Notes: generated by a model from the sequence alone, not told the origin. Shown: positions 18,304-54,606, counted from the stretch's first letter. The stretch: 64,000 bases of DNA from Deltaproteobacteria bacterium (GCA_016930875.1 JAFGFW010000047.1:65587-129586), one strand, 5' to 3'. Numbers and translations are program-made.

Positions 18304-18380
18304 GCGGGCATAGCTCAGATTGGTAGAGTACAAGCTTCCCAAGCTTGGTGTCGCGGGTTCGAGCCCCGTTGCCCGCTCCA
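18304..18380 (+). tRNA. tRNA-Gly (anticodon CCC), with encoded CCA end
   Basis: A cloverleaf can be folded by hand. The acceptor stem is GCGGGCA/TGCCCGC, the D arm GCTC-AGATTGGTA-GAGT. The anticodon stem is CAAGC/GCTTG with loop TTCCCAA. The T arm is GCGGG-TTCGAGC-CCCGT, the discriminator is U, and CCA follows. Confidence 0.9.
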
Positions 18381-30320: not shown

Positions 30321-31211
30321 TCAGTTAAAGAGCTTCATTACATTGTCCGCCTCTGCGAGCGCAAACTCCTGAATGTCACTTATGAGGTTTTTGATTGTCT
30401 CGTAATCGAGGTCAAATCCTTTTTTGATAATGAAATCGAGTTCTGACGAGTTTGCGAATTCATGGAGATCGATCTGTTGCTCATCCGGATGGCACGGGTA
30501 ACCAGCCAGTTTTGTGAGAACGTTTGCAAGGTATATCATGCTGGAATTTGGCCCGGGATTTTCATCACGCCACGGCGCATGATGATATAGGATTTGCGTG
30601 ACAACCTCGTCAGGGAATCTCCACTGCTTGAGGAGTTTTGCTCCGATTTGATAGTGGGTTGTCCCAAGGATCTTCTTTTCCGCTTTACTGAAGGTAGTCT
30701 TGGTCAAGGAGACATGTCCGATGATTTTCAGGAAGTCTTCATGAAAATATTGATCAAGGACGACCTTTCCAATATCGTGAATAAGCCCACCAAGAAAGAA
30801 AGAGCCGTTATTGCGGATATTAAAATGTGTGCCCAATAACCTGGCAACCTGGCTGCATATGATGGCATGTTTCCAGAATCCTGTGCGCTCAAAGGCGTCA
30901 CTTTCACTCTGAGAAAAGAAATTGTATACGGAACAGCCCAGCACAATGGACCTTACCTCATCAATACCCAAAATGACCAAAGCATGCTCAAGAGAACTGA
31001 TCCGGCTCAGAAAGCCGTAAAAAGCAGAGTTTGCAACTCTTAGTATCCTTGCGGCCAATGCCTGGTCTTTTTCGATAATCTCTACGAAATCCTCAAAACG
31101 GGCTTCTTCGTCTCCGGAAAGTTCCATGACCTTCTGGGAAACGACCGGAATGGTCGGTATCTCTTCGATCTTTTCGATCAACCCGTCCAAATTTCTCTTG
31201 GTCTCGCTCAT
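30321..31211 (-). CDS. Stand-alone HDOD-domain signalling protein (296 aa)
   Basis: The HDOD pattern is IPTIPVVSQKVMELSGDEEA.FEDFVEIIEKDQALAARILRVANSAFYGF..RISSLEHALVILG plus the HD-like GGLIHDIGK. It begins 27 nt downstream of the tubulin-like gene. Confidence 0.8.
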   Translation of the reverse strand: MSETKRNLDGLIEKIEEIPTIPVVSQKVMELSGDEEARFEDFVEIIEKDQALAARILRVANSAFYGFLSRISSLEHALVILGIDEVRSIVLGCSVYNFFSQSESDAFERTGFWKHAIICSQVARLLGTHFNIRNNGSFFLGGLIHDIGKVVLDQYFHEDFLKIIGHVSLTKTTFSKAEKKILGTTHYQIGAKLLKQWRFPDEVVTQILYHHAPWRDENPGPNSSMIYLANVLTKLAGYPCHPDEQQIDLHEFANSSELDFIIKKGFDLDYETIKNLISDIQEFALAEADNVMKLFN

Positions 31212-31238
31212 TGTCCTGCCCCAACGACAACTCCTGTT

Positions 31239-33611
31239 TTAGGCGTCAAGGAGTGGAAGTTTTTCGTCCAGGTTGCCCATAATATGCCCGGCGGCTGACT
31301 CACCACGACCACGGAGTTCCTTGAACTCTTCATTAATCCGGTGTAAATAGCTCATTGCAATGAATGGAAACCCCTCCTCATGCTTTGTCACAATAACGTT
31401 GAAGGGGTTTTCCGTCTCTATATGGGAATACCCCACGAACAAATCATCCTTGTACTTCTCGTAGAAGTTTCTTGTGCATATCACGAAACAGGATTGACTG
31501 GTTTCCAGAGTGGGGAACCTGTCACGATCCAATTTCAGGGTCATGAAGAATTGACCAAGCATTGATTCAACATAATCATACACCTTTTTGTCCATACAAA
31601 ATAGCTCATCCACAACCCCGCTGAACTGATTCAAGTCAGGCTTCATGATTTCCAAGACTCTTTCAAGATATTCTCTCTCCTTGAAGTTCCCATTTTGCGG
31701 TATCTGAGCACCCAGTTTTGCTATAACCTCCTGAGTAGGCATTACGTCAAGTCTTGAATAGATTTGTTCCATCAGGTGTTCAGTGACTTCGTCAAATTGC
31801 GCTTTGTTATAAGTAAAAGCGCTCCGGCCTATACGTTTTATCTTATCCACCTCGCGGTCAATTTCTGAAATTAGTCCGTTGTATTTGAAAACGCTGTTCT
31901 TTAACATGCCCTGTTTGTTCCGAACAGATTTCAACAACGAATCGTAAATATGCTTCAACAAAAGATAATCATATTTTCCCTTTTTCTGCTCTTGTATCTT
32001 TGAAGCAACATCCAGGATTTGATTCACGAGGGAGATGGTGGGTGACTGGCCTCCGAGTTTTACCACAAGTTCTCCAATCCCGCTTTTCTTCCTCGATACA
32101 GTTGCCAGCCTCTCCAGCAGACTGTTCAAAGCCTTCTGGTTTGCGCCTTGAAAAAGGTCCTCTTCGAGTTTTGAGATACCTTCAGCTACATCTGTTATCT
32201 TTTCGTCAAGAAGCGATGACAACCTTTCATAGAAGAGAAAGGCAGCTTTCAAAGAATTGGCGGAAGTCAGGATTATCTCGTCGCCTGCTTGCGAGAAGAT
32301 GTTAACGGCTTTCTCAACAAACCATGAGACGTCATCGAGTTTCTTTTTCTTCTCAAACCGCTCAGCGGCAGTCTCATGCATTTCGGCAATTTTATCCATT
32401 AAGAACTCGTAGATCTTTTCCTCCGATACACCTGCTTGATTTATGGTTTCCGCGGTCAGACTGGGAATGTCGATTTTAAACAGGTCAAGTATGTCGTCTT
32501 CATTAAGATTGCTCTCAAAAAAAGAAGACATGGCTCTGCCTTTTATCTTTTCCGCATCCTGGTGGTTGACCGGTTTGACTAGTTCCTCAAAAAGGCGCCT
32601 TGCCATATGGAGATGAAATACTTGCGGAAGGCAATCGGCTTTAAGACCGGCAACATTCATGGTCATGAGAGCTGTGGGATGGGCGTTTCCATTTTTGCCT
32701 TTCCATTCGCGCTCCAGTATGTGAGCAGAATAGTTGACTCTATCACCGTCCAGATAGCTTCCAAGTTTTGTTGTTTCCAGTGTTGAAATGCACTGCGCAA
32801 TAGTTGCTGCAATGGCCTGGTATTTCAGTGATGTCTCTGCGCACCCTCCGGAAAAGGCATACACCCTATGAGCTATTCTGCCATCAAACATCCTTTGGTC
32901 TCTCACCCCATTCTTGCCGGGATATCTCAACCCATTCCTGCCGGCCATGGCATATTCCCATAACATGGCAGATGCCACGCAGTTTCTTTCCACACTGTCT
33001 TCCTGCACATTCTGCAAGCCGAGATAACCTTCTGAAGTGGCAAGGAACACCTCCACTCGTATTTTCTTTTCCCTTAACCTGTTTCTTATTCTGTACAAAA
33101 AGGGTATGGTCATTCCATTGCTAACGGAGCCACCCATTCCGGAAATGACTATCAGTTTGAGTTTTTTTCCGGGATTCTTTGCCCTGACATCATCGATTAG
33201 GCGAAGAGCTTCTCTTGTAATGAGAAGATCGTCGTATTTGTGAAAGGCAACAAAACCAACGGCAGGAACCCCTTTGCAGCCACCTTCGATGTCACATAAT
33301 AGATTAGTAGGTATGTGAGCTACCTGCTCCATAAGCTGCTCGTTCTCTTCGTTTTCTATGTAAACGTCGCCATCAAATTCATCCAGATGGATAAAGTAAT
33401 CTGACTCACGCTCCAGGTCTAAACGATCTCTGTGTGGTTTTTCAGTATCAAATGCCAGGAAACTCACCTTGTCTTCGGGGATACCGAGTCTCGTGAATTC
33501 AGCATGCAAGAGAGATAGTACATATCTTCCAAACCCACCAAAGGTCAAAAAGATTAGCGCCTGGTCCTCGTAGAACTTGTTACTGGCTGATATAAGATGT
33601 CTTAACATCAT
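31239..33611 (-). CDS. Large divergent tubulin/FtsZ-superfamily-like protein (Tubulin_2-like N-domain plus a helical region of about 500 aa), 790 aa
   Basis: The N-terminal domain has the order of blocks I associate with bacterial 'tubulin-like' proteins. These are LIFLTFGGFGRYVL..(G-box-like)..VSFLAFDTE..GGCKGVPAVGFVAFHKY..LKLIVISGMGGSVSNGMTIPFLYRIR (T4-loop-like). The remainder looks long, helical and coiled-coil-like. No signal peptide is present. The assignment is by eye only. Confidence 0.45.
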   Translation of the reverse strand: MMLRHLISASNKFYEDQALIFLTFGGFGRYVLSLLHAEFTRLGIPEDKVSFLAFDTEKPHRDRLDLERESDYFIHLDEFDGDVYIENEENEQLMEQVAHIPTNLLCDIEGGCKGVPAVGFVAFHKYDDLLITREALRLIDDVRAKNPGKKLKLIVISGMGGSVSNGMTIPFLYRIRNRLREKKIRVEVFLATSEGYLGLQNVQEDSVERNCVASAMLWEYAMAGRNGLRYPGKNGVRDQRMFDGRIAHRVYAFSGGCAETSLKYQAIAATIAQCISTLETTKLGSYLDGDRVNYSAHILEREWKGKNGNAHPTALMTMNVAGLKADCLPQVFHLHMARRLFEELVKPVNHQDAEKIKGRAMSSFFESNLNEDDILDLFKIDIPSLTAETINQAGVSEEKIYEFLMDKIAEMHETAAERFEKKKKLDDVSWFVEKAVNIFSQAGDEIILTSANSLKAAFLFYERLSSLLDEKITDVAEGISKLEEDLFQGANQKALNSLLERLATVSRKKSGIGELVVKLGGQSPTISLVNQILDVASKIQEQKKGKYDYLLLKHIYDSLLKSVRNKQGMLKNSVFKYNGLISEIDREVDKIKRIGRSAFTYNKAQFDEVTEHLMEQIYSRLDVMPTQEVIAKLGAQIPQNGNFKEREYLERVLEIMKPDLNQFSGVVDELFCMDKKVYDYVESMLGQFFMTLKLDRDRFPTLETSQSCFVICTRNFYEKYKDDLFVGYSHIETENPFNVIVTKHEEGFPFIAMSYLHRINEEFKELRGRGESAAGHIMGNLDEKLPLLDA

Positions 33612-33645
33612 GAATGTCTCCTTTCTGTCAGTTTTTTTGTTGAGG

Positions 33646-34839
33646 TTACACCTTGATGGGCATCTTCCTTCTGATTTTGCTTATTAGGTAAAAGGAAATG
33701 AAAAGGGTAGCGACAAGCGCAGCCAGCCCTCTCCAAACATAAAACGATAAATAGCCTGCTTTTTTGAATTTCACATGAAACTGTGATGGTTTGATTACAA
33801 GAGTGCCGAAGTGCTTTTGAGATGGGAAGAGGTCAAGCTTCCCTTTGTACGTACCAGGTTTGAGTTCGTTGGATTGTGCTAGTTGAAAGTTAAACAGCAT
33901 TTTGTCTTTCGTAGTTCTTATCTCTAAAGGATAGTCCTGTGGAATTTCAGAAGGGTTGTTCGGATCAAAACTGATGCGTCCGGTTATCGGAGGCGGCTCG
34001 TTGATTTTGTCCCCCCGTACGTTGAAAGAGACATGTTTTTGGTATTGCCCCACACGGTCATAAGGGATTGTGCCGAAATTTATTGCTCTCAAATCCGGCA
34101 GTTCAAGGCTGGATCTCACTGTTTCAGCAAAATTGGTCAAGGCTTTCTCTAATGACAGGCGATTAAAATCTGTCAGATCGACAAGATGTGCCCCCTTGCC
34201 CAACTTCGCTACAAGAGACTTCGCATCATTGAATGCTTCCCATTTCAAGACACCAAGCCAGGCATTCAATTCATGCTCCCTCCCAAGTAGTGAGATCTTC
34301 TTAAAGTTCTCCATATCTTTTTTCTTCCTTGCCTCTTTTTTCTCTTTTGACCATTTGTTGGAATATGGTTCAGACTTTCCGTCTGTGAATACGTACAGTG
34401 CGTTGGTGTGAAAAAATTTACTATATTGTCCTGCGAAATCCGTAGCCTGGACGATAGCTTCAGAAATGAATGTCAAGCTGCCACTCTTCTTGTTCAGCCT
34501 GACCAGTCTATCTTTGATCGGAAGGATATCATTTTCGGTCTGGTACAGGGCTGTTGCTTCCAGTTTCACTCCTTCATCAAACGAAAAAATAGTTATCCTG
34601 TCTCCGGCCTTAATGATATTCTTGCTGCCGTCGAGAAATTCGGCGCCAATTTTGTCTGTAATTACTCTTAGCAGGTCTATATGACCTTTCCTTTTCATAC
34701 TTCCACTTGTATCGATACAAAATATCCAGTGAACGTTAGGTGAGTAGCTTTTTCCGCAGCAATCGGGTTTTATGACGCTGAACAAACACGTGAATATGAC
34801 AAATGTGCAGATCGATATCATGTATTTTTTTCGGTGCAT
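33646..34839 (-). CDS. Membrane-anchored von Willebrand factor A (vWA) domain protein, 397 aa
   Basis: The N-terminal signal/anchor is ISICTFVIFTCLFSV. The MIDAS residues appear intact: DTSGS in IFCIDTSGSMKR, a Thr in GSLTFISEAI and an Asp in YVFTDG. The C-terminal TM helix is GLAALVATLFISFYLI, followed by a basic tail KIRRKMPIKV. Confidence 0.7.
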   Translation of the reverse strand: MHRKKYMISICTFVIFTCLFSVIKPDCCGKSYSPNVHWIFCIDTSGSMKRKGHIDLLRVITDKIGAEFLDGSKNIIKAGDRITIFSFDEGVKLEATALYQTENDILPIKDRLVRLNKKSGSLTFISEAIVQATDFAGQYSKFFHTNALYVFTDGKSEPYSNKWSKEKKEARKKKDMENFKKISLLGREHELNAWLGVLKWEAFNDAKSLVAKLGKGAHLVDLTDFNRLSLEKALTNFAETVRSSLELPDLRAINFGTIPYDRVGQYQKHVSFNVRGDKINEPPPITGRISFDPNNPSEIPQDYPLEIRTTKDKMLFNFQLAQSNELKPGTYKGKLDLFPSQKHFGTLVIKPSQFHVKFKKAGYLSFYVWRGLAALVATLFISFYLISKIRRKMPIKV

Positions 34840-35409
34840 TTTACTCCTCCTGTAAGTACGTGAAGGAACCTGACTTCAATGAGGTGTTTTGGTAGAAATA
34901 TTTGGCTCCTCTCAGTCAAAAAGTGGGCGACTCATCCAATGGCCGCGGATAACGTTTCCGGATGAACCGCAACGTTTTGTCGGAGCGTTACGCAACTTGC
35001 ATGCCATTGCCTATAAGTACTTCAGACGGAGACTTCTTCAATGGATTCTTTTTTCGACTGAGCGAACTAGATATGAAGAAGATTATTGAATACGCGAGTC
35101 TATGAAATTCGTGCCTGGAGTGTTGATTGAAAAGGCTTTAAGGCAGGTGGGGAGACCCCATGAATGTAGTAAAAAGGGCCGTGTGAAAAGCCAGTCGGAC
35201 TTTGTTGCGCCTTTTTCTGGAAAGGAGGGGTCGAGACGGGTTTTAGTGATTTGCGGGGGATATGTTTCTTCATCGCAATTACAATATTGAAACCTAACTT
35301 TCGGGCTGGCGGACTAAGGTGCTATTATCGCATTTCAAGATTCTTTTCTGTCCTGCACTGGTCAAATAGCCCATTGTCAAACTAAACCCATTCTGGTAGG
35401 TTTTTTGCC

Positions 35410-37098
35410 ATGAAAAATCGCGAAAAAGCAAAGCTGCTCAAGAGGATTCTGGACAGTCAGGGCCTTCGCTCGTTATCGCCTCTTGCCATCAAGTTGGTTG
35501 AACTCGCTGCGGACGACCGGAGCTCTGCACGGGATTTGGCCGCAATCATTGAACAGGACCCTGGTCTGGCTACGCGGCTTCTGAGATTAGTTGGCAGCGC
35601 TTTTTTTGCTCGGCCACAGCCGGTCGCCTCTATCTCCCAGGCAGTTGTCCTGGTAGGTTTCAAGAGGGTGCGCATCATGGGTTTAACCCTTTCTCTGCGG
35701 GACACATTTCCCATGGGCGGGACAGAGGGCATGGACTACAATCATTTCTGGAAGACCTCTTTGTATCGAGCGCTCATTGCACATGATTTTGCCCAGTGCG
35801 CGCAGCCACGCAGCCTCGATCCGGGAGAAGCCTTTGTGGCGGGCTTGATCCTGGAAATCGGCATGCTCATGCTTTACCATGCGGCTTGTCCCGAGGAGAT
35901 GAGGAAGAGCTTTCCTGGCGGGAATCTGCCCCTGGAAAAGGCCGTTTCCTGGGAGGAGAAAAATCTGGGTGTCAACCACAGGGAGGTAGGGAGCCTCATT
36001 CTGCGACGCTGGCGGTTTTCAGCCGATCTGGTGGATAGCCAGAGTTATTTCGGGACGGGGGCCATTGAGGCAGACAAGCCGATTCTGTGCAGGGTGGTGG
36101 AGCTGGCAAGGAGAGCAACGGAAATCGTATTCGGTCAAACCGCGGATTTGCATGAGCTGCAAAGGCTGGCTCAAGACCTCCTGAAGTTGGAACCGCAGGG
36201 GGTGAACGTCATTCTGTCAGAGGCATTTGATAAGGTTGAAGACTTGGCCGAGCAACTCCTTATCGAGGTTGATTCACAGACCGACATAGTAAGGGTAATG
36301 GAAAACGCAAATCAGGCCCTCGGTCGGATAAACGCCTCCATGGACACCTCCCTTCAGGGGCTTTTGGACCAGGTGGGTCGGTATGACCGATCACTGAACC
36401 GGATATCTGAGGAGATGAGCCAAAGCCGCAGAGATATCCTTCAAAACACTCTGGACGCGGTGGCCCACGAGATTCGCAACCCACTGCTTGCCATCGGGGG
36501 CTTTGCCAGGAGGCTCGCACACCAGGCCGGCGCAGAAGATCATGGCAGGCAATATGCCAAAATCATTGCCGAAGAGTCTATACGGCTGGAGCGCATCTTA
36601 AAGGAGATCCTGGAATATACACGAGCTTACGAGCCCACTTTTGCCGAGAAAGACCTTGTTAGAGTAACAGACAAGATCCTTGATGAATTTCGAGATCTCT
36701 TCCACGAAAAAGGCATCGACGTGGTCAGGCATTTTCCTGAAGAACCGGTCCGGGTCCCTGTGGACACGGACGGAATTTCCAGGGTGTTGCGACAGCTTGT
36801 GAAGAACGCCATTGGCATGATTGGTCAAGACGGTGGCGCTGTAGCCGTGACCGTTCAACCCTTCCGGCAAACCAGACAAGTATGCATCGGCATTTCTGAC
36901 AACGGGCGCCCCATGCCGGATGACATACGAGATGCCTTAGAGGAGTCGAATCCTTCCACCAAGACCTTTAGCGTCGGCCTGGGTCTTCCCATGGCACGAA
37001 AAATCATAGAAGCTCACAATGGCAGAATTGAGTTGGAAATCCAGGATGGCGTGGGAAATAGCGTGAGGTTTTTCCTTCCGATGTTGCAGTCTCATTGA
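35410..37098 (+). CDS. HDOD-domain sensor histidine kinase (562 aa)
   Basis: The N-terminal HDOD reads LAIKLVELAADDRSSARDLAAIIEQDPGLATRLLRLVGSAFF...QAVVLVGF. The H-box is LDAVAHEIRNPL. The HATPase_c G-boxes are ISDNGRPMP and GLGLPMARKIIEAHNG. Confidence 0.85.
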   Translation: MKNREKAKLLKRILDSQGLRSLSPLAIKLVELAADDRSSARDLAAIIEQDPGLATRLLRLVGSAFFARPQPVASISQAVVLVGFKRVRIMGLTLSLRDTFPMGGTEGMDYNHFWKTSLYRALIAHDFAQCAQPRSLDPGEAFVAGLILEIGMLMLYHAACPEEMRKSFPGGNLPLEKAVSWEEKNLGVNHREVGSLILRRWRFSADLVDSQSYFGTGAIEADKPILCRVVELARRATEIVFGQTADLHELQRLAQDLLKLEPQGVNVILSEAFDKVEDLAEQLLIEVDSQTDIVRVMENANQALGRINASMDTSLQGLLDQVGRYDRSLNRISEEMSQSRRDILQNTLDAVAHEIRNPLLAIGGFARRLAHQAGAEDHGRQYAKIIAEESIRLERILKEILEYTRAYEPTFAEKDLVRVTDKILDEFRDLFHEKGIDVVRHFPEEPVRVPVDTDGISRVLRQLVKNAIGMIGQDGGAVAVTVQPFRQTRQVCIGISDNGRPMPDDIRDALEESNPSTKTFSVGLGLPMARKIIEAHNGRIELEIQDGVGNSVRFFLPMLQSH

Positions 37099-37194
37099 TT
37101 TTCTGATTCAGAAATACCCCGGCTGTTGATGTCCTTGCTTTCAAGTTTTTCAGCTCAGATGCCGATAATACCTGAAAGGAAGGAGACCGCTGAA

Positions 37195-37761
37195 ATGTTT
37201 AAATTTAAGACCATTACCCGTTCAACGTACCTTGTTATCTGCCTTGGGGTTTTTGTTGGATGCATGAGCACTGATCATTATGTCAAACAAGATGCAAAAT
37301 TTTCTCGATTCAAACGGGCGGCTGTCCTGCCATTTGCTCCTCCACCTGAAGTGCCGAAGGAACAAGCATCCGGCATCTGTGAAGGCGTGGCTGATATTGT
37401 TGCCACGCAGCTCCTGAAAAAAGGATGGGACGTGGTAGAGCGTGCCCGCGTGCAAGCGATCTTTGAGGAGCGCAATCTTGAAATAAGCGAGTTCCCGGTA
37501 GGAACCAATCTCGACAAAGTGCGTCAGCTGTTGGCGGTCGATTGTTTTGTGACCGGGTCCATAACGGAGTGGCGTGAATTCATAGCCTTTCGTAATGACG
37601 GTGGTGTCGGGATTACCATAAAAATCTATGACGGCTACACAGGTCAATTAGTGTGGTCAGGCTCCGGCAATAGCACTGTAACTTTGCTTGATGATAAACG
37701 ACAGAGCTATCATGCCCAGAGAATCATAAAAGACCTTTGCAACAACATTCCTGCTGGCTAG
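37195..37761 (+). CDS. Putative lipoprotein (CsgG/LpoB-like alpha/beta fold suspected)
   Basis: An AAGGAG RBS precedes ATG 37195. The lipobox is GVFVGC. RAAVLPFA.....GICEGVADIVATQLLKKGWDVVERARVQAIFEERNL resembles small periplasmic lipoproteins of the CsgG/LpoB type. The function call is tentative. Confidence 0.5.
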   Translation: MFKFKTITRSTYLVICLGVFVGCMSTDHYVKQDAKFSRFKRAAVLPFAPPPEVPKEQASGICEGVADIVATQLLKKGWDVVERARVQAIFEERNLEISEFPVGTNLDKVRQLLAVDCFVTGSITEWREFIAFRNDGGVGITIKIYDGYTGQLVWSGSGNSTVTLLDDKRQSYHAQRIIKDLCNNIPAG

Positions 37762-37777
37762 AAAACGGTTTAATGAT

Positions 37778-37954
37778 ATGAAAGAACACAACCACACTGA
37801 TCATGACTATGAGATGCGTCAACGTTTCGCCGAGCAAACTGCAAAGCTCTGGGAAGAATGTAAGAAAAAGGAGGAGCGTGACTGGCTGCGCGTAGGGGAG
37901 GCCCTCACGGATATGCACCTCCAAGATGATCGGTCTAAGGCAACTTCCCAATAG
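37778..37954 (+). CDS. Possible small ORF (58 aa, below the ORF-track cutoff)
   Basis: It reads ATG...TAG and encodes MKEHNHTDHDYEMRQRFAEQTAKLWEECKKKEERDWLRVGEALTDMHLQDDRSKATSQ. The sequence is charged and helical-looking. There is no convincing Shine-Dalgarno. Confidence 0.2.
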   Translation: MKEHNHTDHDYEMRQRFAEQTAKLWEECKKKEERDWLRVGEALTDMHLQDDRSKATSQ

Positions 37955-38001
37955 CTTGGTTTCCCCCCACGGAGAACGAACTACCCGGGTTCTTTGATGA
38001 G

Positions 38002-40134: not shown

Positions 40135-43100
40135 CTATCGCGAAAAATTCTTGACCGCCCCAATCCCTGTCTCTGGTTCGACTTTAACCGCGCAAACCTT
40201 GTATTCGGGTATCTTCGAAACCGCATCAAGGGTATCAATGGTCAGAAGATTTGCGGCGGCCTCTTTGAAGTGAAAAGGGATAAAGACAAGCCCTTGTGGG
40301 CAACTTGTAGTCAGATGGGCCCTGACAACCAGTTGCCCGCGGCGAGAGGAAACTCTTACCATCCAGCCTTCTTCAATATTGCACGTCTCAGCATCTTTAG
40401 GATGGATTTTCAATAACGGCTCTGAACATAGCAAATTCAGGTCCCGTACCCTCCGGGTCATTGTGCCGCTGTTATAGTGTTGCAGTACACGTCCTGTGGA
40501 GAAAAAAAATGGATAGGTGTCATTCGGCAGTTCGCCGGGCGGAATGAATTCTGTCGGATGAAATAGCCCCATGCCCCTGGTAAACGTGTCCTTGTGAAGG
40601 TATGGTGTGCCTGGATGATCTCTCGTCGGGCAAGGCCACTGAAGCCCCTGTTTTTCCAGGCGATCATAATAAATCCCACCATAATTCGGAGTGAGGCCGG
40701 CGATTTCTTCCATGATTTCTCCGGGGGATAGATAGTTCATCCGGTAGCCCATCGTCCGGGCAAGTTCGCAAATGATCTGCCAGTCCGACTTGGCCTGGCC
40801 CACCGGAGTAAATGCCTGTCTTACCCTCTGGATACGCCTTTCTGTGTTGGTAAAGGTACCTTCCTTTTCGGCAAAACTCGCTGCGGGAAGTACTACGTTG
40901 GCAAGCTTGGCCGTCTCGGTCATGAATATGTCTTGCACGACCAAAAACTCCAGACTATCTAAGGCAGCCTTCACTTCGTTGGAGTTAGGGTCGCTTATGA
41001 CCGGGTTTTCCCCAACAACATATAGACCCTTGATCTTCCCCTTGAGTGCGGCAGGCCACATCTCTGTAACGGCTAACCCTGGCTCAGGAGAGATTTTTAC
41101 CTCCCAATCCTGCTCAAACTTCTCAATTACCCGTTGGTCAGAGAGGCTCTGGTACCCTGGCAACACATTTGGAAGCGCTCCCATATCACAGGCTCCCTGG
41201 ACATTATTCTGCCCACGGAGGGGGTTTACCCCTCCTCCCTCGATCCCCACATTCCCGCACAGCATGGCCAGATTGGCAATGGACTTCACATTATCAGTCC
41301 CTGCCGCATGCTGGGTAATCCCCATTGCATACACGATAGAAGCAATCTCGGCCTCGGCATAGAGGCGGGCAGCCTTCTTGAGATCCCGGGCAGGGATGCC
41401 TGTGATCTTTTCCACAAACTCGGGATCGTATTTTGTGACGCTTTCTTTCAAGGCATCAAAGTTTTCTGTCCTCTTCTCCACATAGGACCTGTCCCACAAC
41501 TGTTCCTGAATAATGACGTGCATCAGGCCGTTAAGCCAGGCCACATCTGTGCCTGGTCTGGGCCGAAGCCAGACATCGGCGTATTTCATAAGTTCTAGCT
41601 CACGAGGGTCTACCACGATAAGTCTTGCTCCGTTCCGGGAGACTGCGCGCCTGATGTGGAGGTCCACTATGGGATGGTTCTCTGTCGGGTTGCTGCCGGT
41701 AAGTAGAATAACACACGCCTTTTCTATTTCCATCATAGAATTGGTCATCGCTCCACTACCAAAGGCGGCGGCCAGACCGGCCACGGTCGAGGCATGTCAG
41801 AGTCGCGCGCAATGATCCACATTGTTCGTCCCGATCACAGCTCGCATGAACTTTTGCATGAGGTAGTTTTCCTCATTAGTGCACTTAGCAGAACTCAAGC
41901 AGGCCAAAACCTGTGGGCCGCATCTTTCCTTCAATTCCAAAAACTTTTGGGAGACCAATGACAGCGCTTCCTCCCAGGTTGCTTCAACGAAATACTCACC
42001 TTTTCGCACAAGAGGATGCGTGAGACGGTCTTTATGATGGAGAAAATCGTATCCGAATCGCCCCTTGACACACGTGTTTCCAAAATTCGGGGCATGGGAA
42101 GGATCTGATGTCACCTCCACCAGGGATTCCCCGTTCACGTTCAGTGTCAGATTGCAGCCGCACCCGCAATATGCGCAAACGGTCCTTGTCTGCTTCAATC
42201 GATCAGAAGGAACAGGAAGCGTGACGCACTTTTTTACCAGGGCGCCTGTGGGGCAACTGTCCACACATTTTCCGCAAGACGTACAGCTTTCGTTTATCCT
42301 GATCGTAATGTCCAAAGGGAGGTCATTGTCATCGAATTGAGATGCATTCACTTCCATTGCCTGAAATTCACAATTACTTCTGCAGCGCTGGCAAAAGATA
42401 CACTTGTTGGGATCAATCGTGATAAGAGGATGGCTATCGTCTATCGCATACTTGAGACGTTTTTCCGTTCCCAAGACAGAGAGATCCGCACCATATTCCA
42501 TGGCAAGCCTTCTGAGTTCACATTTGGGAAGAGCCACACAGCCGCAACCCAGACATCGTCCCGCCTCTCGAAGGGCCATATCCTCGGAAAAGCCAAGCGT
42601 ATATTCGATAAAACTCCGGATACGTATGTTGGGAGGACGCTCGGGGATCTGTTCACTCGGCTCGATTTGAATCCCAGCGAAATTCTTAAGATCTACCTCA
42701 TCAAGGTTCCCTCCCCTGGTAACGTTAAGCTCTGTTTGAGCAGGTCTTATCTCATTCCCGGTAAGGTAGAGATGGATCGAATCGGTAGCTCTCCGACCGG
42801 CAGCAACTGCCTTAACGACCGTTCTTGGACCGCTAACCACGTCCCCACCGGCAAAAACCCCTTTTACGCTAGTTTGAAAAGTGTCCGGGTCTACAATGAT
42901 CCTATCTTTTTGAGATATAGCGAGTTCACCAATTTTACCTTCAGTAGAAAACAATGAGACGTCAGGCCTCTGACCGATTACAGAAAAAACATTATCCACT
43001 TCAAAAATAGCCTCAGAACCAGAAATGGGAACAGGATAACGTCGTCGTCCGTCCTTTTCCGGTTCGCTGAGTCGGGTTCGAAGTACTTCAATTTTCAGGC

Positions 43101-44274
43101 GCCCATCCTCTGTCATAATCCTTGAAGGAGTTGCCACGAAAAAAAAGCGCACCCCCTCTGCTTCTGCTTTCCTGACCTCCTGCTCCCTGGCGGGCAGCTC
43201 CAGCCGGCTGCGCCGGTAGATGATGGTTACTTCTTCAGCCCCTATTCTCAGGCAGGTCCGCGCCACATCCATGGCCGAGTTTCCCCCTCCGATCACAGCC
43301 ACCCTTTTACCTATACTGACATCTTTGCCGGCAGCTACGTTTTTCAGGAACTCCAATCCGGAAACGACCCCTTCCAGATCTTCCCCCTCCACCCCCATAT
43401 TTATTTCGCGCCATGCTCCTATGCCGACAAAAATCGCACCAAAGCCTTCCTCACTCAGAGTTTCCAGAGTAAAGTCCTTTCCCAGCCGCTGTCCGGTCCT
43501 AACGCTAATACCGGTTTGAAGAATATTTCTTATTTCCAGATCCAGGATCTTCTTGGGGAGTCGGTACTCTGGTATGCCATAACGGAGCATCCCGCCTAGT
43601 TTGGGCATCGCCTCAAGGATTGTAACCGCATGACCCTTTCGGGCCAGATAGTAGGCTGCTGACAGTCCTGCAGGTCCACCGCCAATGACGGCCACACGAT
43701 GTCCGGTGGACGCCAAAGGACCAAGAATATCTCTTTGTTCAGCATGCAACGCATAGTCTGCAACAAATCGCTTGAGGTGATTTATAGTCACAGGCTCGTC
43801 AACCAGCATCCGGCGACACATGTCCTGACAAGGGTGGGGGCAGATTCTGCCTGTCGATAACGGAAGGGGATTCTTCTCCTTGATGAGCCTGAGCGCCTCA
43901 AGATATTGCCCACGGCCGATCAGGCTGACATACCCCTGGATATTTATGTTGGCCGGGCAGGAAAAGGAACAAGGGGAGATACAGTCTCCATAGTGCCGGG
44001 AGAGTTTTAGTTCCAAGATATGTTTGCGGTGTGCTCGAACAGGATCACTCTTGGTGCTTACAATCATGCCGTGTTCCACCGGCGTGGAACAGGCTCGCAC
44101 GAGGGCTTTTTCCCCCTCAATTTCAACAGCGCATATTTGACATGGATGATCCGCCTGATGCGAACATAAGGTGGGGATATTAATACCGGCATGCGAGGCG
44201 GCATCGAGAATGGTCGTGCCAGGTTCAACCCACACGGTTTGACCATCGATCCTGACTTGCACACTATTCGTCAC
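40135..44274 (-). CDS. fdhA: Selenocysteine-containing formate dehydrogenase catalytic subunit fused to 2Fe-2S and GltD-like NAD(P)H/FAD modules (1379 aa, U826)
   Basis: The track ORFs 41797..44274 and 40135..41784 are in the same frame, separated only by TGA at 41797-41799. Read-through gives ...[30 protein letters not shown], the canonical Mo/W-FDH Sec/Cys active-site motif. Upstream domains are a 2Fe-2S (Fer2-like), a GltD-like region (VAVIGGGPAGLSAAYYLA..., AVIGGGNSAMD), 4Fe-4S clusters and the MopB Fe4S4 motif CAYCGCGCN. Confidence 0.85.
41765..41796 (-). promoter_or_regulatory. Candidate bacterial SECIS hairpin for the FDH UGA
   Basis: The mRNA downstream of the UGA reads CAUGCCUCGACC-GUGGCC-GGUCU-GGCCGC. 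This forms a 6-bp stem with a GGUCU apical loop starting 12 nt after the UGA. It is reminiscent of the GGUCU-containing loop of the E. coli fdhF SECIS. Confidence 0.5.
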
Positions 44275-52044: not shown

Positions 52045-53532
52045 CTATTCTTCCACCGGCAATGATACGATAAATGTCGTACCCTTTCCGACTTCACTTT
52101 CCATGTGGACTGAACCGTTGTGGGCATCCAGAATCCCTTTGACGATCGACAGCCCAAGGCCTGAGCCAGTTACACGCCTGGTTTGTTCCGTCTTGATGCG
52201 ATAGAATCTCTCAAAAACCCGGTCAATATCTTCTGGCGGAATTCCTATGCCGGTGTCAGCCACCTTGAATCGTATGTCTTTTCCCGCCTTGTTGAGGACC
52301 ACCTGCACATTCCCACCCTTTGGGGTGTATTTGATGGCATTGCTGATAAGGTTAACAAAGACCGCCTCTATGCCGCCCCTGTCGCCACTGAACGATGGGA
52401 TTTCTTCCTCAATTTCGGACTTCATGCTAATGCCTTTCTCTTCAGCAGACAGGCGCATAAGCTCAACGGTTCGCTGCAAGATCTCCGTCAGGTCCAGGCT
52501 TTCAATCTTCTGGATCGATTTGCCCTCCTGAATACGCCTATAGTCCAGGATGTCGTTGACCAAGGTAATCATTCCCTTGGTCTTTTCCTTGGCCTTCCCG
52601 AGCAGATCTGTCTGTTTAGAAGTAAGAGCCCCGGCCAGTCCGTCATGAATTACAGAAACCTGCATCAGCAGGGAGCTCAAAGGAGCCTTGAGTTCGTGGG
52701 AGACCATAGAGAGAAAATCGGCCCTCAGTTTATCCATTGCGCTAATCCCCGTGACGTCATGAAAGAGGCATACCGCACCAACTACCGTCCCTTCTCCATT
52801 CTTCACAGGGTCTACATGTACACGAAACGATTTTTCTTGCACCTTGACCACGGGTTCTTCGCCGGCCATCAAAGGAGCCAAGGAACTGTCCGATTGAATT
52901 GCACGCAATATAAACGATAACAACTCATCCGACTCAATGCACTCTGAAACGGGACGCCCCAGCGTCTTTGCCTCCTTCAAGCCAAACAGGCTTGCGGCTT
53001 TCTCATTAAACAGTACGATGTCCGTCTGCCAATCCGCCACTACGAGAGCGTCGGCAAGGCTGTTGAGGATCGCGAGAAGATTCTCTTCACGGCCCGGTTT
53101 ACTTAAGGTGGCCTGCCTTTGCCGTCTCAGCACCCTCAGTTGCCGCCTGAGCCTGAAGGCCTCTATGGCCCGATTCATCTTTGTCCAAAAGCGGTCCTTG
53201 GTAAAGCTCTTGCGGATGCAGTCGTAGGCCCCGGCATGCATTGCCTCGATGGCTTCCTCTCCACAGTTGTCAGACATGGTCATGATCAGGATTTCATGCC
53301 TGGCCTTTTGAACGATGTTGATGAGAGACATCCCGCCCCATCCGGCAAGCTCAAGGGAAAGTAGCATGATGTCCACATCTCCTGGATGTTTCTGGATGAT
53401 TTCCAGTGCTTCTTCAACAGACTCGGCTGTCCGGACCCTGTGGCCTTCGTCCAGGATGAGTTGCCGGCATCTTTGTATAATGGTGATATCGTTTTCTACC
53501 ACCAATACGTTTATGGTCGGCCTGATCAACAT
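52045..53532 (-). CDS. Hybrid sensor histidine kinase: N-terminal atypical receiver, PAS, HisKA and HATPase_c (495 aa)
   Basis: The receiver-like N-terminus is NVLVVENDITII...VDIMLLSLELAGWGG...DCIRKSF. The H-box is FLSMVSHELKAPL. The HATPase boxes are SNAIKYTP, VADTGIGIP and GSGLGLSIVK. Confidence 0.85.
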   Translation of the reverse strand: MLIRPTINVLVVENDITIIQRCRQLILDEGHRVRTAESVEEALEIIQKHPGDVDIMLLSLELAGWGGMSLINIVQKARHEILIMTMSDNCGEEAIEAMHAGAYDCIRKSFTKDRFWTKMNRAIEAFRLRRQLRVLRRQRQATLSKPGREENLLAILNSLADALVVADWQTDIVLFNEKAASLFGLKEAKTLGRPVSECIESDELLSFILRAIQSDSSLAPLMAGEEPVVKVQEKSFRVHVDPVKNGEGTVVGAVCLFHDVTGISAMDKLRADFLSMVSHELKAPLSSLLMQVSVIHDGLAGALTSKQTDLLGKAKEKTKGMITLVNDILDYRRIQEGKSIQKIESLDLTEILQRTVELMRLSAEEKGISMKSEIEEEIPSFSGDRGGIEAVFVNLISNAIKYTPKGGNVQVVLNKAGKDIRFKVADTGIGIPPEDIDRVFERFYRIKTEQTRRVTGSGLGLSIVKGILDAHNGSVHMESEVGKGTTFIVSLPVEE

Positions 53533-53539
53533 CGTCTGA

Positions 53540-53923
53540 CTAGTTCTCGCTCAGCCAGTCCCCTACTCGCTCTGCCAACTCTTGAGATTCGACTGGTTTG
53601 GCAATGTAATCATCGGCCTCGGTCATAAGGCCCATGTGCTGGGTGTAATGCGTTTTGAACATCTCCTGGTCCACGCCCGTGAGCAGAATGACCGGGATTT
53701 TCTTCAGTTCCGGGTCTGCCTTAAGGACCACGCACACATCGTATCCGTTCATTTCAGGCATCATTACATCCAGGATGACCAGATCGGGTTTCTCGGTCCG
53801 CACCTTCTCCAGCCCCTCCTTTCCGTCATAAGCCAGTATAACTTCGTAGCCGTTACTCTCCAAAAGGAGCTTTGTTGCGTCACAAAAATCAACGTCGTCG
53901 TCAACTAACAACACCTTTTTCAT
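53540..53923 (-). CDS. Single-domain response regulator (receiver only)
   Basis: The motifs are KKVLLVDDD, DLVILDVMMP, ILLTG and DDYIAKP. The preferred start is ATG 53923; the ORF track uses GTG 53929. It ends 7 nt upstream of the kinase gene. Confidence 0.85.
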   Translation of the reverse strand: MKKVLLVDDDVDFCDATKLLLESNGYEVILAYDGKEGLEKVRTEKPDLVILDVMMPEMNGYDVCVVLKADPELKKIPVILLTGVDQEMFKTHYTQHMGLMTEADDYIAKPVESQELAERVGDWLSEN

Positions 53924-54015
53924 GGCCACACCTATACAATTGCGGATTTTAGATTGCGGATTCTCAGAAACCCGATTCTGAGCATATTCCCGGTATTTGG
54001 TGAGTCTAACTCAAC

Positions 54016-54060
54016 GAACTCAATAAACTCAATAAACCCAATAAACCCGATAGACCCATT
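54016..54060. repeat. Five degenerate tandem 9-mers (GAACTCAAT AAACTCAAT AAACCCAAT AAACCCGAT AGACCCATT)
   Basis: Read directly at 54016-54060 in the spacer between the two receiver genes. Successive units differ by single substitutions. Confidence 0.75.
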
Positions 54061-54466
54061 ATTCCTTACCAATCCTTTTAAGGATCTTCCCGACCCTTTC
54101 GAGCAATGTGGCGCTTTCGATGGGCTTTTCCACATAATCATCAACATCGAGCTGGACACCGGTTTCCAGTTCATAGCGGCGCTGGCTCACGTCCTCTCGC
54201 ACTGAGCTAAGGATGATGATCGGCATACTGCCGTACTTGGCGTGCCGCGGATCTTTGAGGGCTTTGCATACTTCAAAGCCGTCCATTACGGGCATGAGGA
54301 GATCCAGGATGAGCAAATCCGGTTGCTCTTCTTTCAGCTTTACCAGGCACTTCTCGCCGTTCTCAGCCGTGACCACCGTGTAGCCGCCAGCCTCCAATAT
54401 CATCTGCAAGGTTTCCCGCATATCAGGATCGTCGTCAACGACCAGGATCTTGGCACTTGTTCCCAT
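54059..54466 (-). CDS. Single-domain response regulator (receiver only), paralogue of 53540..53923
   Basis: The motifs are AKILVVDDDPD, DLLILDLLMP, IIILSS and DDYVEKP. The start is ATG 54466. The upstream 15 codons of the ORF track (MTNDKWQMINDRGCT) translate a low-complexity spacer. Confidence 0.85.
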   Translation of the reverse strand: MGTSAKILVVDDDPDMRETLQMILEAGGYTVVTAENGEKCLVKLKEEQPDLLILDLLMPVMDGFEVCKALKDPRHAKYGSMPIIILSSVREDVSQRRYELETGVQLDVDDYVEKPIESATLLERVGKILKRIGKE

Positions 54467-54606
54467 GGTACACCCCCTATCATTTATCATTTGCCATTTA
54501 TCATTGGTCATTCCTCAATAGAATTGGATATTGTCGATTGAATATTAAAGATTGGAAGAATAAATCATCAACCATCACTGACGATTGATCACTTAATGAC
54601 CAATCA

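Follow-up and report, generated by a model that had tools for sequence, protein, structure and literature searches.

We analysed a stretch of 64,000 nt from a Deltaproteobacteria bacterium of sulfate-reducer type (GCA_016930875.1 JAFGFW010000047.1:65587-129586; the window) and concentrated on a locus at 30321-37761. Three closely spaced minus-strand genes at this locus encode a membrane protein with a von Willebrand factor A (vWA) domain, a 790-aa protein related to tubulin and FtsZ, and a stand-alone HDOD-domain protein. The genes for a histidine kinase with an HDOD domain and for a lipoprotein are divergently transcribed on the other side of a presumed promoter region (Table 1). An earlier annotation made from the DNA without database searches (the sequence-only reading) had grouped the three minus-strand genes as one module facing the kinase and had put them forward as an undescribed membrane-signalling or cytoskeletal system. 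Its gene positions, its 570-bp spacer and its gaps of 34 nt (vWA to tubulin-like) and 27 nt (tubulin-like to HDOD) matched our open reading frame (ORF) map exactly. The vWA, tubulin-like and HDOD genes are real genes because each has more than 100 conserved homologues. The conserved unit is a two-gene vWA-tubulin-like operon, to which an HDOD gene has been added in some loci only; conservation does not extend to the kinase and lipoprotein genes. The pair is a minimal, lineage-restricted variant of the FtsZl1-vWA association predicted computationally in 2010 and not a categorically new system.

Table 1. Genes, protein domains and conserved motifs at the locus.
Feature	Window position	Strand	Residues or length	Remarks
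Stand-alone HDOD gene	30321-31211	-	296 aa	ORF map
Tubulin-like gene	31239-33611	-	790 aa	Gene 2 of the pair; ORF map
Extreme C-terminal peptide of the 790-aa protein	31242-31262	-	E784-K-L-P-L-L-D-A790	L785, P786, L788 and D789 invariant in alignment A1
T4-loop equivalent	33111-33143	-	S157-G-M-G-G-S-V-S-N-G-M167	Replaces superfamily GGGTG(S/T)G
T1-loop equivalent	33525-33539	-	G25-G-F-G-R29	Invariant in alignment A1; xxGGFGRx in 99 of 104 sequences covering the region
Tubulin/FtsZ-fold N-domain			~17-345 of the 790-aa protein	AlphaFold model
Long helices			350-700 of the 790-aa protein (~350 aa)	Include a 72-residue helix, 524-595; AlphaFold model
Small alpha/beta C-domain			706-770 of the 790-aa protein	Followed by a short tail; AlphaFold model
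vWA gene	33646-34839	-	397 aa	Gene 1 of the pair; ORF map
Basic cytoplasmic tail of the vWA protein (predicted)	33649-33678	-	K-I-R-R-K-M-P-I-K-V (~10 residues)	Consensus NKIKRKMPIKV
MIDAS motif	34699-34713	-	D43-T-S-G-S47	Further positions T96 and D153 lie elsewhere in the gene
vWA protein layout			Signal-anchor/transmembrane 5-28; vWA 36-241; beta-sandwich 242-360; C-terminal transmembrane 363-392; basic tail	Model and hydropathy
Divergent intergenic spacer	34840-35409	.	570 bp	Presumed promoters of the vWA operon and the kinase gene
HDOD-histidine kinase gene	35410-37098	+	562 aa	Divergent neighbour; ORF map
Lipoprotein ORF	37126-37761	+		ORF map

We gathered 78 related loci out of genomes, metagenomes and assemblies (individual loci are given below as L numbers) and searched these loci with the window proteins. 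The vWA gene was scored in loci that have a tubulin-like gene at least 55% identical and enough upstream DNA (n = 50), and the HDOD gene in loci with at least 1 kb of downstream DNA (n = 39). In all 50 informative loci, the gene immediately upstream of the tubulin-like gene encodes a vWA protein, always on the same strand and 31-221 nt away, and the vWA-linked clade of tubulin-like proteins is monophyletic. In contrast, an HDOD gene lies downstream of the pair in only 8 of 39 loci, and also in L078. The HDOD-bearing loci formed one subclade in a neighbour-joining tree, with apparent losses in L022 and L006. Most loci have nothing in the position of the HDOD gene, and a sister subclade has a gene for a 122-aa Lpp-like lipoprotein there (L001 12427-12795; L008, L027-L031), with an LGC lipobox, an Ala-rich coiled coil and a weak Alanine_zipper match. 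The genes around the pair differ from locus to locus, with unrelated contexts in almost every lineage. The window kinase recurs only in L023, a strain-level relative of 97% identity, and the lipoprotein gene is deleted there. From these patterns of occurrence, the pair is the robust unit. The neighbourhood survey that had been suggested for homologues of the 790-aa protein upheld the co-occurrence with vWA genes throughout and that with HDOD genes in one subclade only, and the proposed three genes are not a fixed module. The link of the 122-aa lipoprotein to the cell envelope may bear on the predicted periplasmic vWA domain.

The 790-aa protein matched the Pfam model Tubulin_2 (PF13809) at 31.6 bits, above the gathering cutoff of 27, over residues 25-297 and model positions 6-313 of 356. 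The same model matched 11 of 14 diverse family members, with a best E-value of 2.6e-11. An AlphaFold model built from our family alignment (A1) had a mean predicted local distance difference test (pLDDT) score of 75.5, and all 50 of the matches listed by Foldseek against the PDB belonged to the tubulin superfamily, including gamma-tubulin and other tubulins, CetZ2 (4b45) and TubZ (3v3t). Among these matches, 43 had E-values of 0.001 or lower (best ~2e-4; probability 1.00), with 290-363 aligned columns. The aligned columns (~300-360) take in both the GTPase and the activation-domain regions of the tubulin/FtsZ fold. An exhaustive profile search of 1.84 billion representative proteins returned only 55 matches, of which about ten were full-length clusters; beyond a wide gap, the nearest outgroups were canonical Tubulin_2 proteins, which aligned over the N-domain only at E-values of 1e-8 to 1e-4. 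Together, the Pfam, Foldseek and outgroup results place the 790-aa protein in the tubulin/FtsZ superfamily. This agrees with the tubulin-like N-domain that had been recognised from the order of its sequence blocks, and the profile and structure searches did not place the protein in an unrelated, well-characterised family. At the sequence level, a PDB search with the family profile found no FtsZ or tubulin (the best match was coiled-coil noise, E 0.04), and NCBIfam had no model for the vWA, tubulin-like or lipoprotein genes.

Hydropathy revealed no transmembrane segment in the 790-aa protein, in keeping with the cytoplasmic location assigned to it before. The sequence-only reading had also described about 500 aa of helical sequence after the N-domain. 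This description held for the ~350 aa of long helices and failed for the remainder, which the model folds as a small alpha/beta domain with a tail. The taxonomic distribution of the family is patchy and restricted, and the carriers found were all uncultured Desulfobacterota-type metagenome-assembled genomes (MAGs). In locus L072 (9221-11826; genome ~4 Mb), the tubulin-like gene is split into ORFs of 127 aa and 568 aa with a gap of ~500 nt, and the vWA gene is intact; the split gene is likely a pseudogene or the result of an insertion.

The loops that bind GTP in tubulin and FtsZ are altered in this family. The T1 equivalent reads GGFGR in the window clade, compared to GLGGTG in canonical Tubulin_2 proteins. 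The T4 equivalent departs further. The vWA-linked clade uniformly has GMGGSVSNGM, the form seen in 83 of 113 aligned family sequences; GMGGGTSNGM is found in an intermediate clade, and the most distant family members have Asp or Glu within the loop (GD, GE or DD). Representatives of canonical Tubulin_2 have S[LI][AS]GGTGSG at this position, and relative to it the window loop lacks the conserved Thr and one Gly and has one extra residue. The signature that defines FtsZl1, GGGTG(S/T)G, is consequently absent from the window protein, where GMGGSVSNG stands instead. A T6-like Asn, N210, is invariant, and no T7 catalytic motif could be identified in the 790-aa protein. As the T4 loop is GMGGSVSNG and not GGGTGSG, assembly of the protein probably does not depend on GTP being bound and hydrolysed in the canonical way. 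These residues make the usual GTP-driven dynamics unlikely, and the term polymer-forming NTPase that had been used for this fold is doubtful. The extreme C-terminus is strongly conserved: KLPLLD[ADETS] is near-universal across 113 sequences, and the LPLLDA tail is conserved also in members that have no vWA neighbour.

The vWA protein, a bitopic membrane protein, was recognised by the Pfam model VWA_2 (32.4 bits against a cutoff of 27). Hydropathy placed hydrophobic segments at residues 5-28 and 368-390, in line with the N- and C-terminal membrane segments noted earlier. In the AlphaFold model (pLDDT 75), the vWA domain is followed by a beta-sandwich, and the best structural analogues found by Foldseek were ANTXR2, ITIH1 and integrin beta subunits (E 6e-8 to 1e-6; 11-16% identity). 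The residues of the metal-ion-dependent adhesion site (MIDAS), namely D43, T44, S45, G46, S47, T96 and T152-D153-G154, are invariant in 22 orthologues of 53-96% identity and in 33 locus-derived orthologues; the MIDAS is intact. Both termini are basic, with the consensus MxxKKY... at the start and ...NKIKRKMPIKV at the end, and the tail is at least 80% conserved across orthologues, with P394 invariant. By the positive-inside rule, the basic termini argue for a vWA domain outside the cytoplasm, and we infer a periplasmic vWA domain and beta-sandwich with a cytoplasmic tail. The family is compact, with 123 clusters that are all at least 53% identical, and it mirrors the tubulin-like clade; the ectodomain is not hypervariable (53-96% identity) and tracks the tubulin-like protein.

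The association of tubulin-like with vWA genes had been mentioned as unverified by the sequence-only reading. It is indeed published (PMC2875224, PMC7159879), so that the system had not been undescribed: the FtsZl1-vWA pairing has been on record as a computational prediction since 2010. Makarova and Koonin (2010, Biol Direct 5:33, PMC2875224) reported that the usual operon partner of FtsZl1 is a vWA protein with an intact MIDAS and signal or transmembrane segments, that GTPases, OmpA-family proteins and Ser/Thr kinases are frequent further partners, and that the likely role is membrane remodelling. They used GGGTG(S/T)G to define FtsZl1 and found T6-H7 unalignable in FtsZl1 as a whole (PMC2875224). 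Santana-Molina et al. (2023) equated the FtsZl1 group with Pfam Tubulin_2. Like FtsZl1, the window protein has a divergent FtsZ/tubulin N-domain, then a long stretch of helices or coiled coil and, at the C-terminus, a globular domain, shares an operon with a MIDAS-intact vWA protein bearing signal or transmembrane segments, has a T6-H7 region that is unrecognisable by sequence, and is likewise without experimental characterisation. It differs in several respects. The window version consists of two genes only, without GTPase, OmpA-family or Ser/Thr-kinase partners; its T4 loop departs from the family-defining signature; its C-terminal domain is alpha/beta and not mostly helical, and ends in the invariant LPLLDA; and its subfamily is tiny, reaching canonical Tubulin_2 through the N-domain only. 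An HDOD accessory gene is also unreported for FtsZl1. Our search of the literature on FtsZl1, Tubulin_2 or tubulin-vWA pairs found only computational papers and no experimental one.

A second kind of system to compare is that of the GAP1-N2 DO-GTPase conflict systems, in which tubulin-coiled-coil genes lie beside genes for membrane proteins whose vWA domain is extracellular (Kaur et al. 2020, eLife 9:e52696, PMC7159879). In the scheme of Kaur, Burroughs, Iyer and Aravind (2020, PMC7159879), the extracellular vWA domain senses the invader and a thresholded complex is built from the tubulin-coiled-coil proteins; systems of this type often contain inactive NTPase domains (PMC7159879). The window pair shares with them a tubulin domain with a C-terminal coiled-coil or helical domain, a neighbouring membrane protein with an extracellular vWA and beta-rich domain, and a predicted site at the membrane. 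However, it lacks the DO-GTPase, GAP1, FNIII-repeat proteins, effector domains and a hypervariable component, and the host belongs to the Desulfobacterota and not to the Firmicutes or Actinobacteria. No GTPase was found among the ORFs at 25.6-44.3 kb of the window, all of which were accounted for, and the annotated loci L001, L021, L022, L073 and L078 have no GTPase or FNIII genes; for the GAP1 domains, Pfam offers no model for a direct scan. PADLOC-DB v2 gave no match for the vWA, tubulin-like and lipoprotein genes, and for the HDOD gene only weak generic HD-domain matches to Cas3 and Cas10.

Analogies further afield were found for each protein of the pair. The vWA protein resembles ANTXR2/TEM8 and integrin beta in its predicted extracytoplasmic MIDAS vWA domain, Ig-like beta-sandwich, transmembrane segment and short cytoplasmic tail, and in having a partner of a cytoskeletal family on the cytoplasmic side. 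At 11-16% identity this is an architectural analogy, with no homology shown beyond the vWA fold; in addition, the cytoplasmic partner of the window protein has a tubulin fold and is not actin-linked. The 790-aa protein shares its fold with FtsZ, TubZ and CetZ, and FtsZ too has a conserved extreme C-terminal peptide, which docks membrane tethers. Unlike these proteins, it shows no sequence-level match to any solved tubulin or FtsZ, has a non-canonical T4 loop and no identifiable T7, and has a 440-residue helical and alpha/beta extension.

The stand-alone HDOD protein matched HDOD (PF08668) at 201.5 bits, HD at 33.9 bits and HDIG at 35.1 bits. Against the Geobacter sulfurreducens HDOD protein 3HC1 (E 9e-34), residues H115, H145, D146, H186, H210 and H211 are identical, and the protein thus retains the complete H...HD...H...HH metal-ligand pattern seen in 3HC1. 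The Geobacter protein binds two Fe through five His and one Asp (PMC12075610). From the HD-motif pattern, the six residues are the putative di-iron ligands of the window protein. SadB differs in this respect, as its HDOD domain is without the ligands and works as a proteolysis adaptor. The stand-alone HDOD family is large (940 matches at E <= 1e-30). Its closest orthologues outside the subclade (58-68% identity; L074-L077) end operons in which an MshEN-domain T2SSE/PilB-like ATPase gene comes first and a ParA/MinD-like ATPase gene second, and GGDEF genes and a second HDOD gene lie nearby in L075. Orthologues are thus normally found in MshEN/T2SSE-ParA operons and not beside tubulin-like genes. 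Because of this position at the end of such operons, the usual role of the family is suggested to be in a pilus or secretion ATPase system linked to cyclic di-GMP (c-di-GMP).

The pair may still have a looser link to HDOD and histidine-kinase signalling. The window has only two HDOD-domain ORFs, both flanking this locus, and in 619 kb of sequence from related loci an HDOD profile matched only genes adjoining the pair. HDOD was recruited beside the pair on two or more independent occasions: downstream in one subclade, and upstream in L012. In L012 (1263-4249), a gene for a CheD-HDOD fusion of 462 aa overlaps the stop codon of a PAS-HisKA-HATPase-REC hybrid kinase gene directly upstream of the pair; the fusion of a CheD deamidase domain to HDOD is an unusual architecture. 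L078 has a REC-kinase gene upstream of the pair and an HDOD gene downstream. These results suggest that HDOD is most likely a recurrent but optional, lineage-specific regulator or sensor and not a core component.

Pfam bore out the domains that had been assigned to the stand-alone HDOD protein, the kinase and the lipoprotein. The window kinase is a soluble protein with HisKA and HATPase_c domains, and its N-terminal HDOD domain (137.1 bits) is degenerate: the changes H to T, HD to LE and HH to FG have cost it four of the six metal ligands. Three lineages (window/L023, L012 and L078) have a kinase gene upstream of the pair; these kinases are not orthologous and differ in architecture. Kinase genes were not significantly enriched near the pair, with 4 in 165 kb within 2.5 kb compared to 2 in 157 kb farther out. 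The kinase link is unproven, and the HDOD-kinase is at most a species-level regulatory neighbour; the sequence-only reading had counted it as part of the system. It had found no cognate response regulator nearby, which was also our result: the nearest receiver-domain ORFs are ~15 kb away, beside another kinase. Receiver domains were detected in the window only there, in a minus-strand cluster at 52048-54514 made up of a hybrid histidine kinase (52048-53550) and small receiver-domain ORFs (53543-54010 and 54062-54514).

The lipoprotein gave a CsgG-like match of 31.7 bits. The TTG start at 37126 is probably too far upstream, and an ATG at ~37195 gives MFKFKTITRSTYLVICLGVFVGC, with a lipobox. L023 lacks 753 bp (window 37241-37993; L023 ~2371) that cover most of the gene, with the junction at a TCT(T) microhomology. 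We considered this CsgG-like lipoprotein as a periplasmic partner of the pair and rejected it, given the deletion in the closest relative. The lipoprotein is unrelated to the module. At the other end of the locus, the sequence of L023 diverges from that of the window immediately past the HDOD gene.

Housekeeping genes border the locus, as had been stated, with genes for PNPase, an M16 peptidase, dUTPase and a metallo-beta-lactamase (MBL)-fold protein on one flank and for PabC, PabB and formate dehydrogenase on the other. The difference in base composition that had been pointed out was also recovered (43.5% GC in the vWA-tubulin-like pair compared to 50.5% in the rest of the window). It extends beyond the window: in each of 21 loci compared, the GC content of the pair is below that of the DNA around it, by 7.4 points on average, across 55-97% protein divergence and different hosts. 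The deficit in the window is present at codon positions 1, 2 and 3, and the pair is rich in Lys, Glu, Asn and Ile. Because the deficit affects all codon positions and persists over this range of divergence, amino-acid composition explains the low GC at least as well as recent horizontal transfer does. No integration site or mobile-element hallmark was seen beside the module, and Rfam and ARAGORN scans detected no RNA gene at the locus, their sole hit in the window being tRNA-Gly(CCC) at 18304-18380 (+). A scan for consensus promoters and terminators did no better than on shuffled sequence and was uninformative on co-transcription.

With modest confidence, we favour the interpretation that the two-gene operon is a compact FtsZl1-vWA variant whose products act as a transmembrane receptor-scaffold complex. 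In this model, the vWA domain and beta-sandwich would capture a ligand in the periplasm through the MIDAS metal. The captured group would typically be an acidic side chain on a protein of the envelope or of foreign origin, a mode of binding that resembles that of integrin I-domains and anthrax-toxin receptors. The transmembrane helix and basic tail of the receptor would recruit or organise the tubulin-fold/coiled-coil protein as a scaffold under the inner membrane, and the acidic C-terminal peptide of the latter may act as a docking element, as the FtsZ C-terminal peptide does. The scaffold would probably not be assembled by canonical GTP turnover and may be nucleotide-independent or weakly binding. 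In the window subclade, the HDOD protein would be a metal-dependent regulator added downstream.

Several points weigh against this interpretation. For contact between the predicted periplasmic vWA domain and the cytoplasmic tubulin-like protein, a tail of ~10 residues is all that is available, a thin interface, and the topology itself comes only from hydropathy and the positive-inside rule. In the Foldseek comparison the TM-scores reach modest values (0.3-0.47 normalised to target), and the mean pLDDT of the 790-aa model is ~75. The tubulin-like protein may yet bind nucleotide, since neither the T1 GGFG nor N210 varies and the clade strictly conserves its T4 loop. We also considered LPLLDA as a vWA-specific docking peptide and rejected it, because it is equally conserved in the sister clade where no vWA gene adjoins. 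Finally, no physical interaction or localisation has been reported for any FtsZl1-vWA pair.

The serious rival to the receptor-scaffold complex, which we nevertheless regard as unlikely, is that the pair is a stripped-down, two-gene biological-conflict module, an anti-phage or anti-invader sensor-effector of the type described by Kaur et al. 2020. The gene arrangement in the GAP1-N2 DO-GTPase systems (PMC7159879) speaks for it, as do the genomic context that changes in almost every lineage, the patchy taxonomic distribution, the disruption of the tubulin-like gene in L072 and the frequency of inactive NTPase domains in such systems. The AT-richness of the pair in all 21 loci (mean 7.4 points) would also fit, but the Lys/Glu/Asn/Ile-rich composition accounts for a deficit at every codon position equally well. 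However, genes for DO-GTPase, GAP1, FNIII-repeat, effector or EAD proteins are absent from the window and from the annotated related loci, no domain of a toxic effector could be recognised, and PADLOC had no match for either protein of the pair. The surroundings consist of housekeeping genes and not defence islands, and an ectodomain conserved at 53-96% identity is not hypervariable. A bolder reading of the pair, which we rate as quite unlikely, is a bacterial integrin-like device, in which a periplasmic MIDAS receptor would be coupled to a tubulin-fold protein that has lost canonical GTP-driven dynamics and serves as a nucleotide-independent scaffold under the membrane, with a di-iron HDOD protein gating its assembly in some lineages. 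The coupling across the inner membrane would be mechanical or allosteric, and the HDOD protein would be a redox or small-molecule sensor. If true, the FtsZl1 branch would thereby gain its first assigned function, and the tubulins an example of a pseudo-GTPase.

It is improbable that all five genes form one dedicated membrane-signalling system in which HDOD-HDOD contacts couple a cytoskeletal element to a phosphorelay. The placement of the only two HDOD-domain ORFs of the window on either side of the locus, the restriction of HDOD matches to pair-adjacent genes over 619 kb, the repeated recruitment of HDOD and the kinases directly upstream of the pair in window/L023, L012 and L078 are all consistent with such a system. 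They are outweighed by the absence of a downstream HDOD gene from 31 of 39 loci, where other subclades have the Lpp-like lipoprotein or nothing in its place, and by the MshEN/T2SSE-ParA-HDOD operons that house the HDOD orthologues of 58-68% identity. Moreover, the three upstream kinases are non-orthologous and of different architectures, their density near the pair is not significantly above background, the HDOD domain of the window kinase has lost metal ligands, no response regulator lies within 15 kb, and the lipoprotein gene is cleanly deleted in the 97% relative. We consider very improbable a role of the 790-aa protein as a GTP-driven cytomotive filament like FtsZ, TubZ or CetZ, with the vWA protein as its membrane anchor and a use in cell shape, division-site or organelle positioning. 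This idea draws on the tubulin/FtsZ fold, in which the GTPase region and the activation-domain region both align (~300-360 columns), on the invariant T1 GGxG and N210, on a conserved C-terminal peptide as in FtsZ, and on the original FtsZl1 proposal of membrane remodelling (PMC2875224). Against it stand a T4 loop without the conserved Thr and one Gly and with an extra residue, Asp or Glu inside this loop in more distant members, the lack of an identifiable T7 motif together with the unalignable T6-H7 of FtsZl1 (PMC2875224), and a PDB profile search that finds no FtsZ or tubulin. A patchy, restricted distribution also fits a core cell-biological role poorly.

FtsZl1/Tubulin_2 is the most divergent branch of the tubulin-FtsZ superfamily, and its function is without experiment 15 years after it was predicted. 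The pair described here is the smallest version of FtsZl1 seen so far. It is tractable because it comprises two genes and one receptor-like partner with clear topology, without GTPase, kinase or OmpA partners, and it suits questions of polymerisation, of nucleotide binding by a tubulin fold with a degraded T4 loop, and of communication from a vWA domain to the cytoplasm. Work on it would have to be heterologous because the carriers found are all uncultured. The recurrent, optional recruitment of HDOD is in addition a rare genomic handle on the targets of stand-alone HDOD regulation.

Distant relatives of the tubulin-like protein (33-43% identity; L013, L014, L018, L019, L059, L061, L069, L070 and L071) have no vWA neighbour. 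Their hosts include Latescibacterota and Krumholzibacteriia among others, and they share a different conserved context, made up of genes for a TPR protein, for a polytopic membrane protein of ~600 aa and, divergently transcribed, for a soluble protein of 222 aa. The membrane protein has a GLDDYTY motif and a C-terminal TPR and is GT-C glycosyltransferase-like; the 222-aa protein has no Pfam match.

Elsewhere in the window, minus-strand ORFs of 825 and 549 aa at 40135-44274 are one formate dehydrogenase gene that is split by an in-frame TGA at 41797-41799. The context of this codon, ...VDHCARL-TGA-HAST..., is the one in which alpha subunits of formate dehydrogenase classically have selenocysteine. 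At its N-terminal end the gene is fused to 2Fe-2S, Fer4 and pyridine-nucleotide-disulphide oxidoreductase domains.

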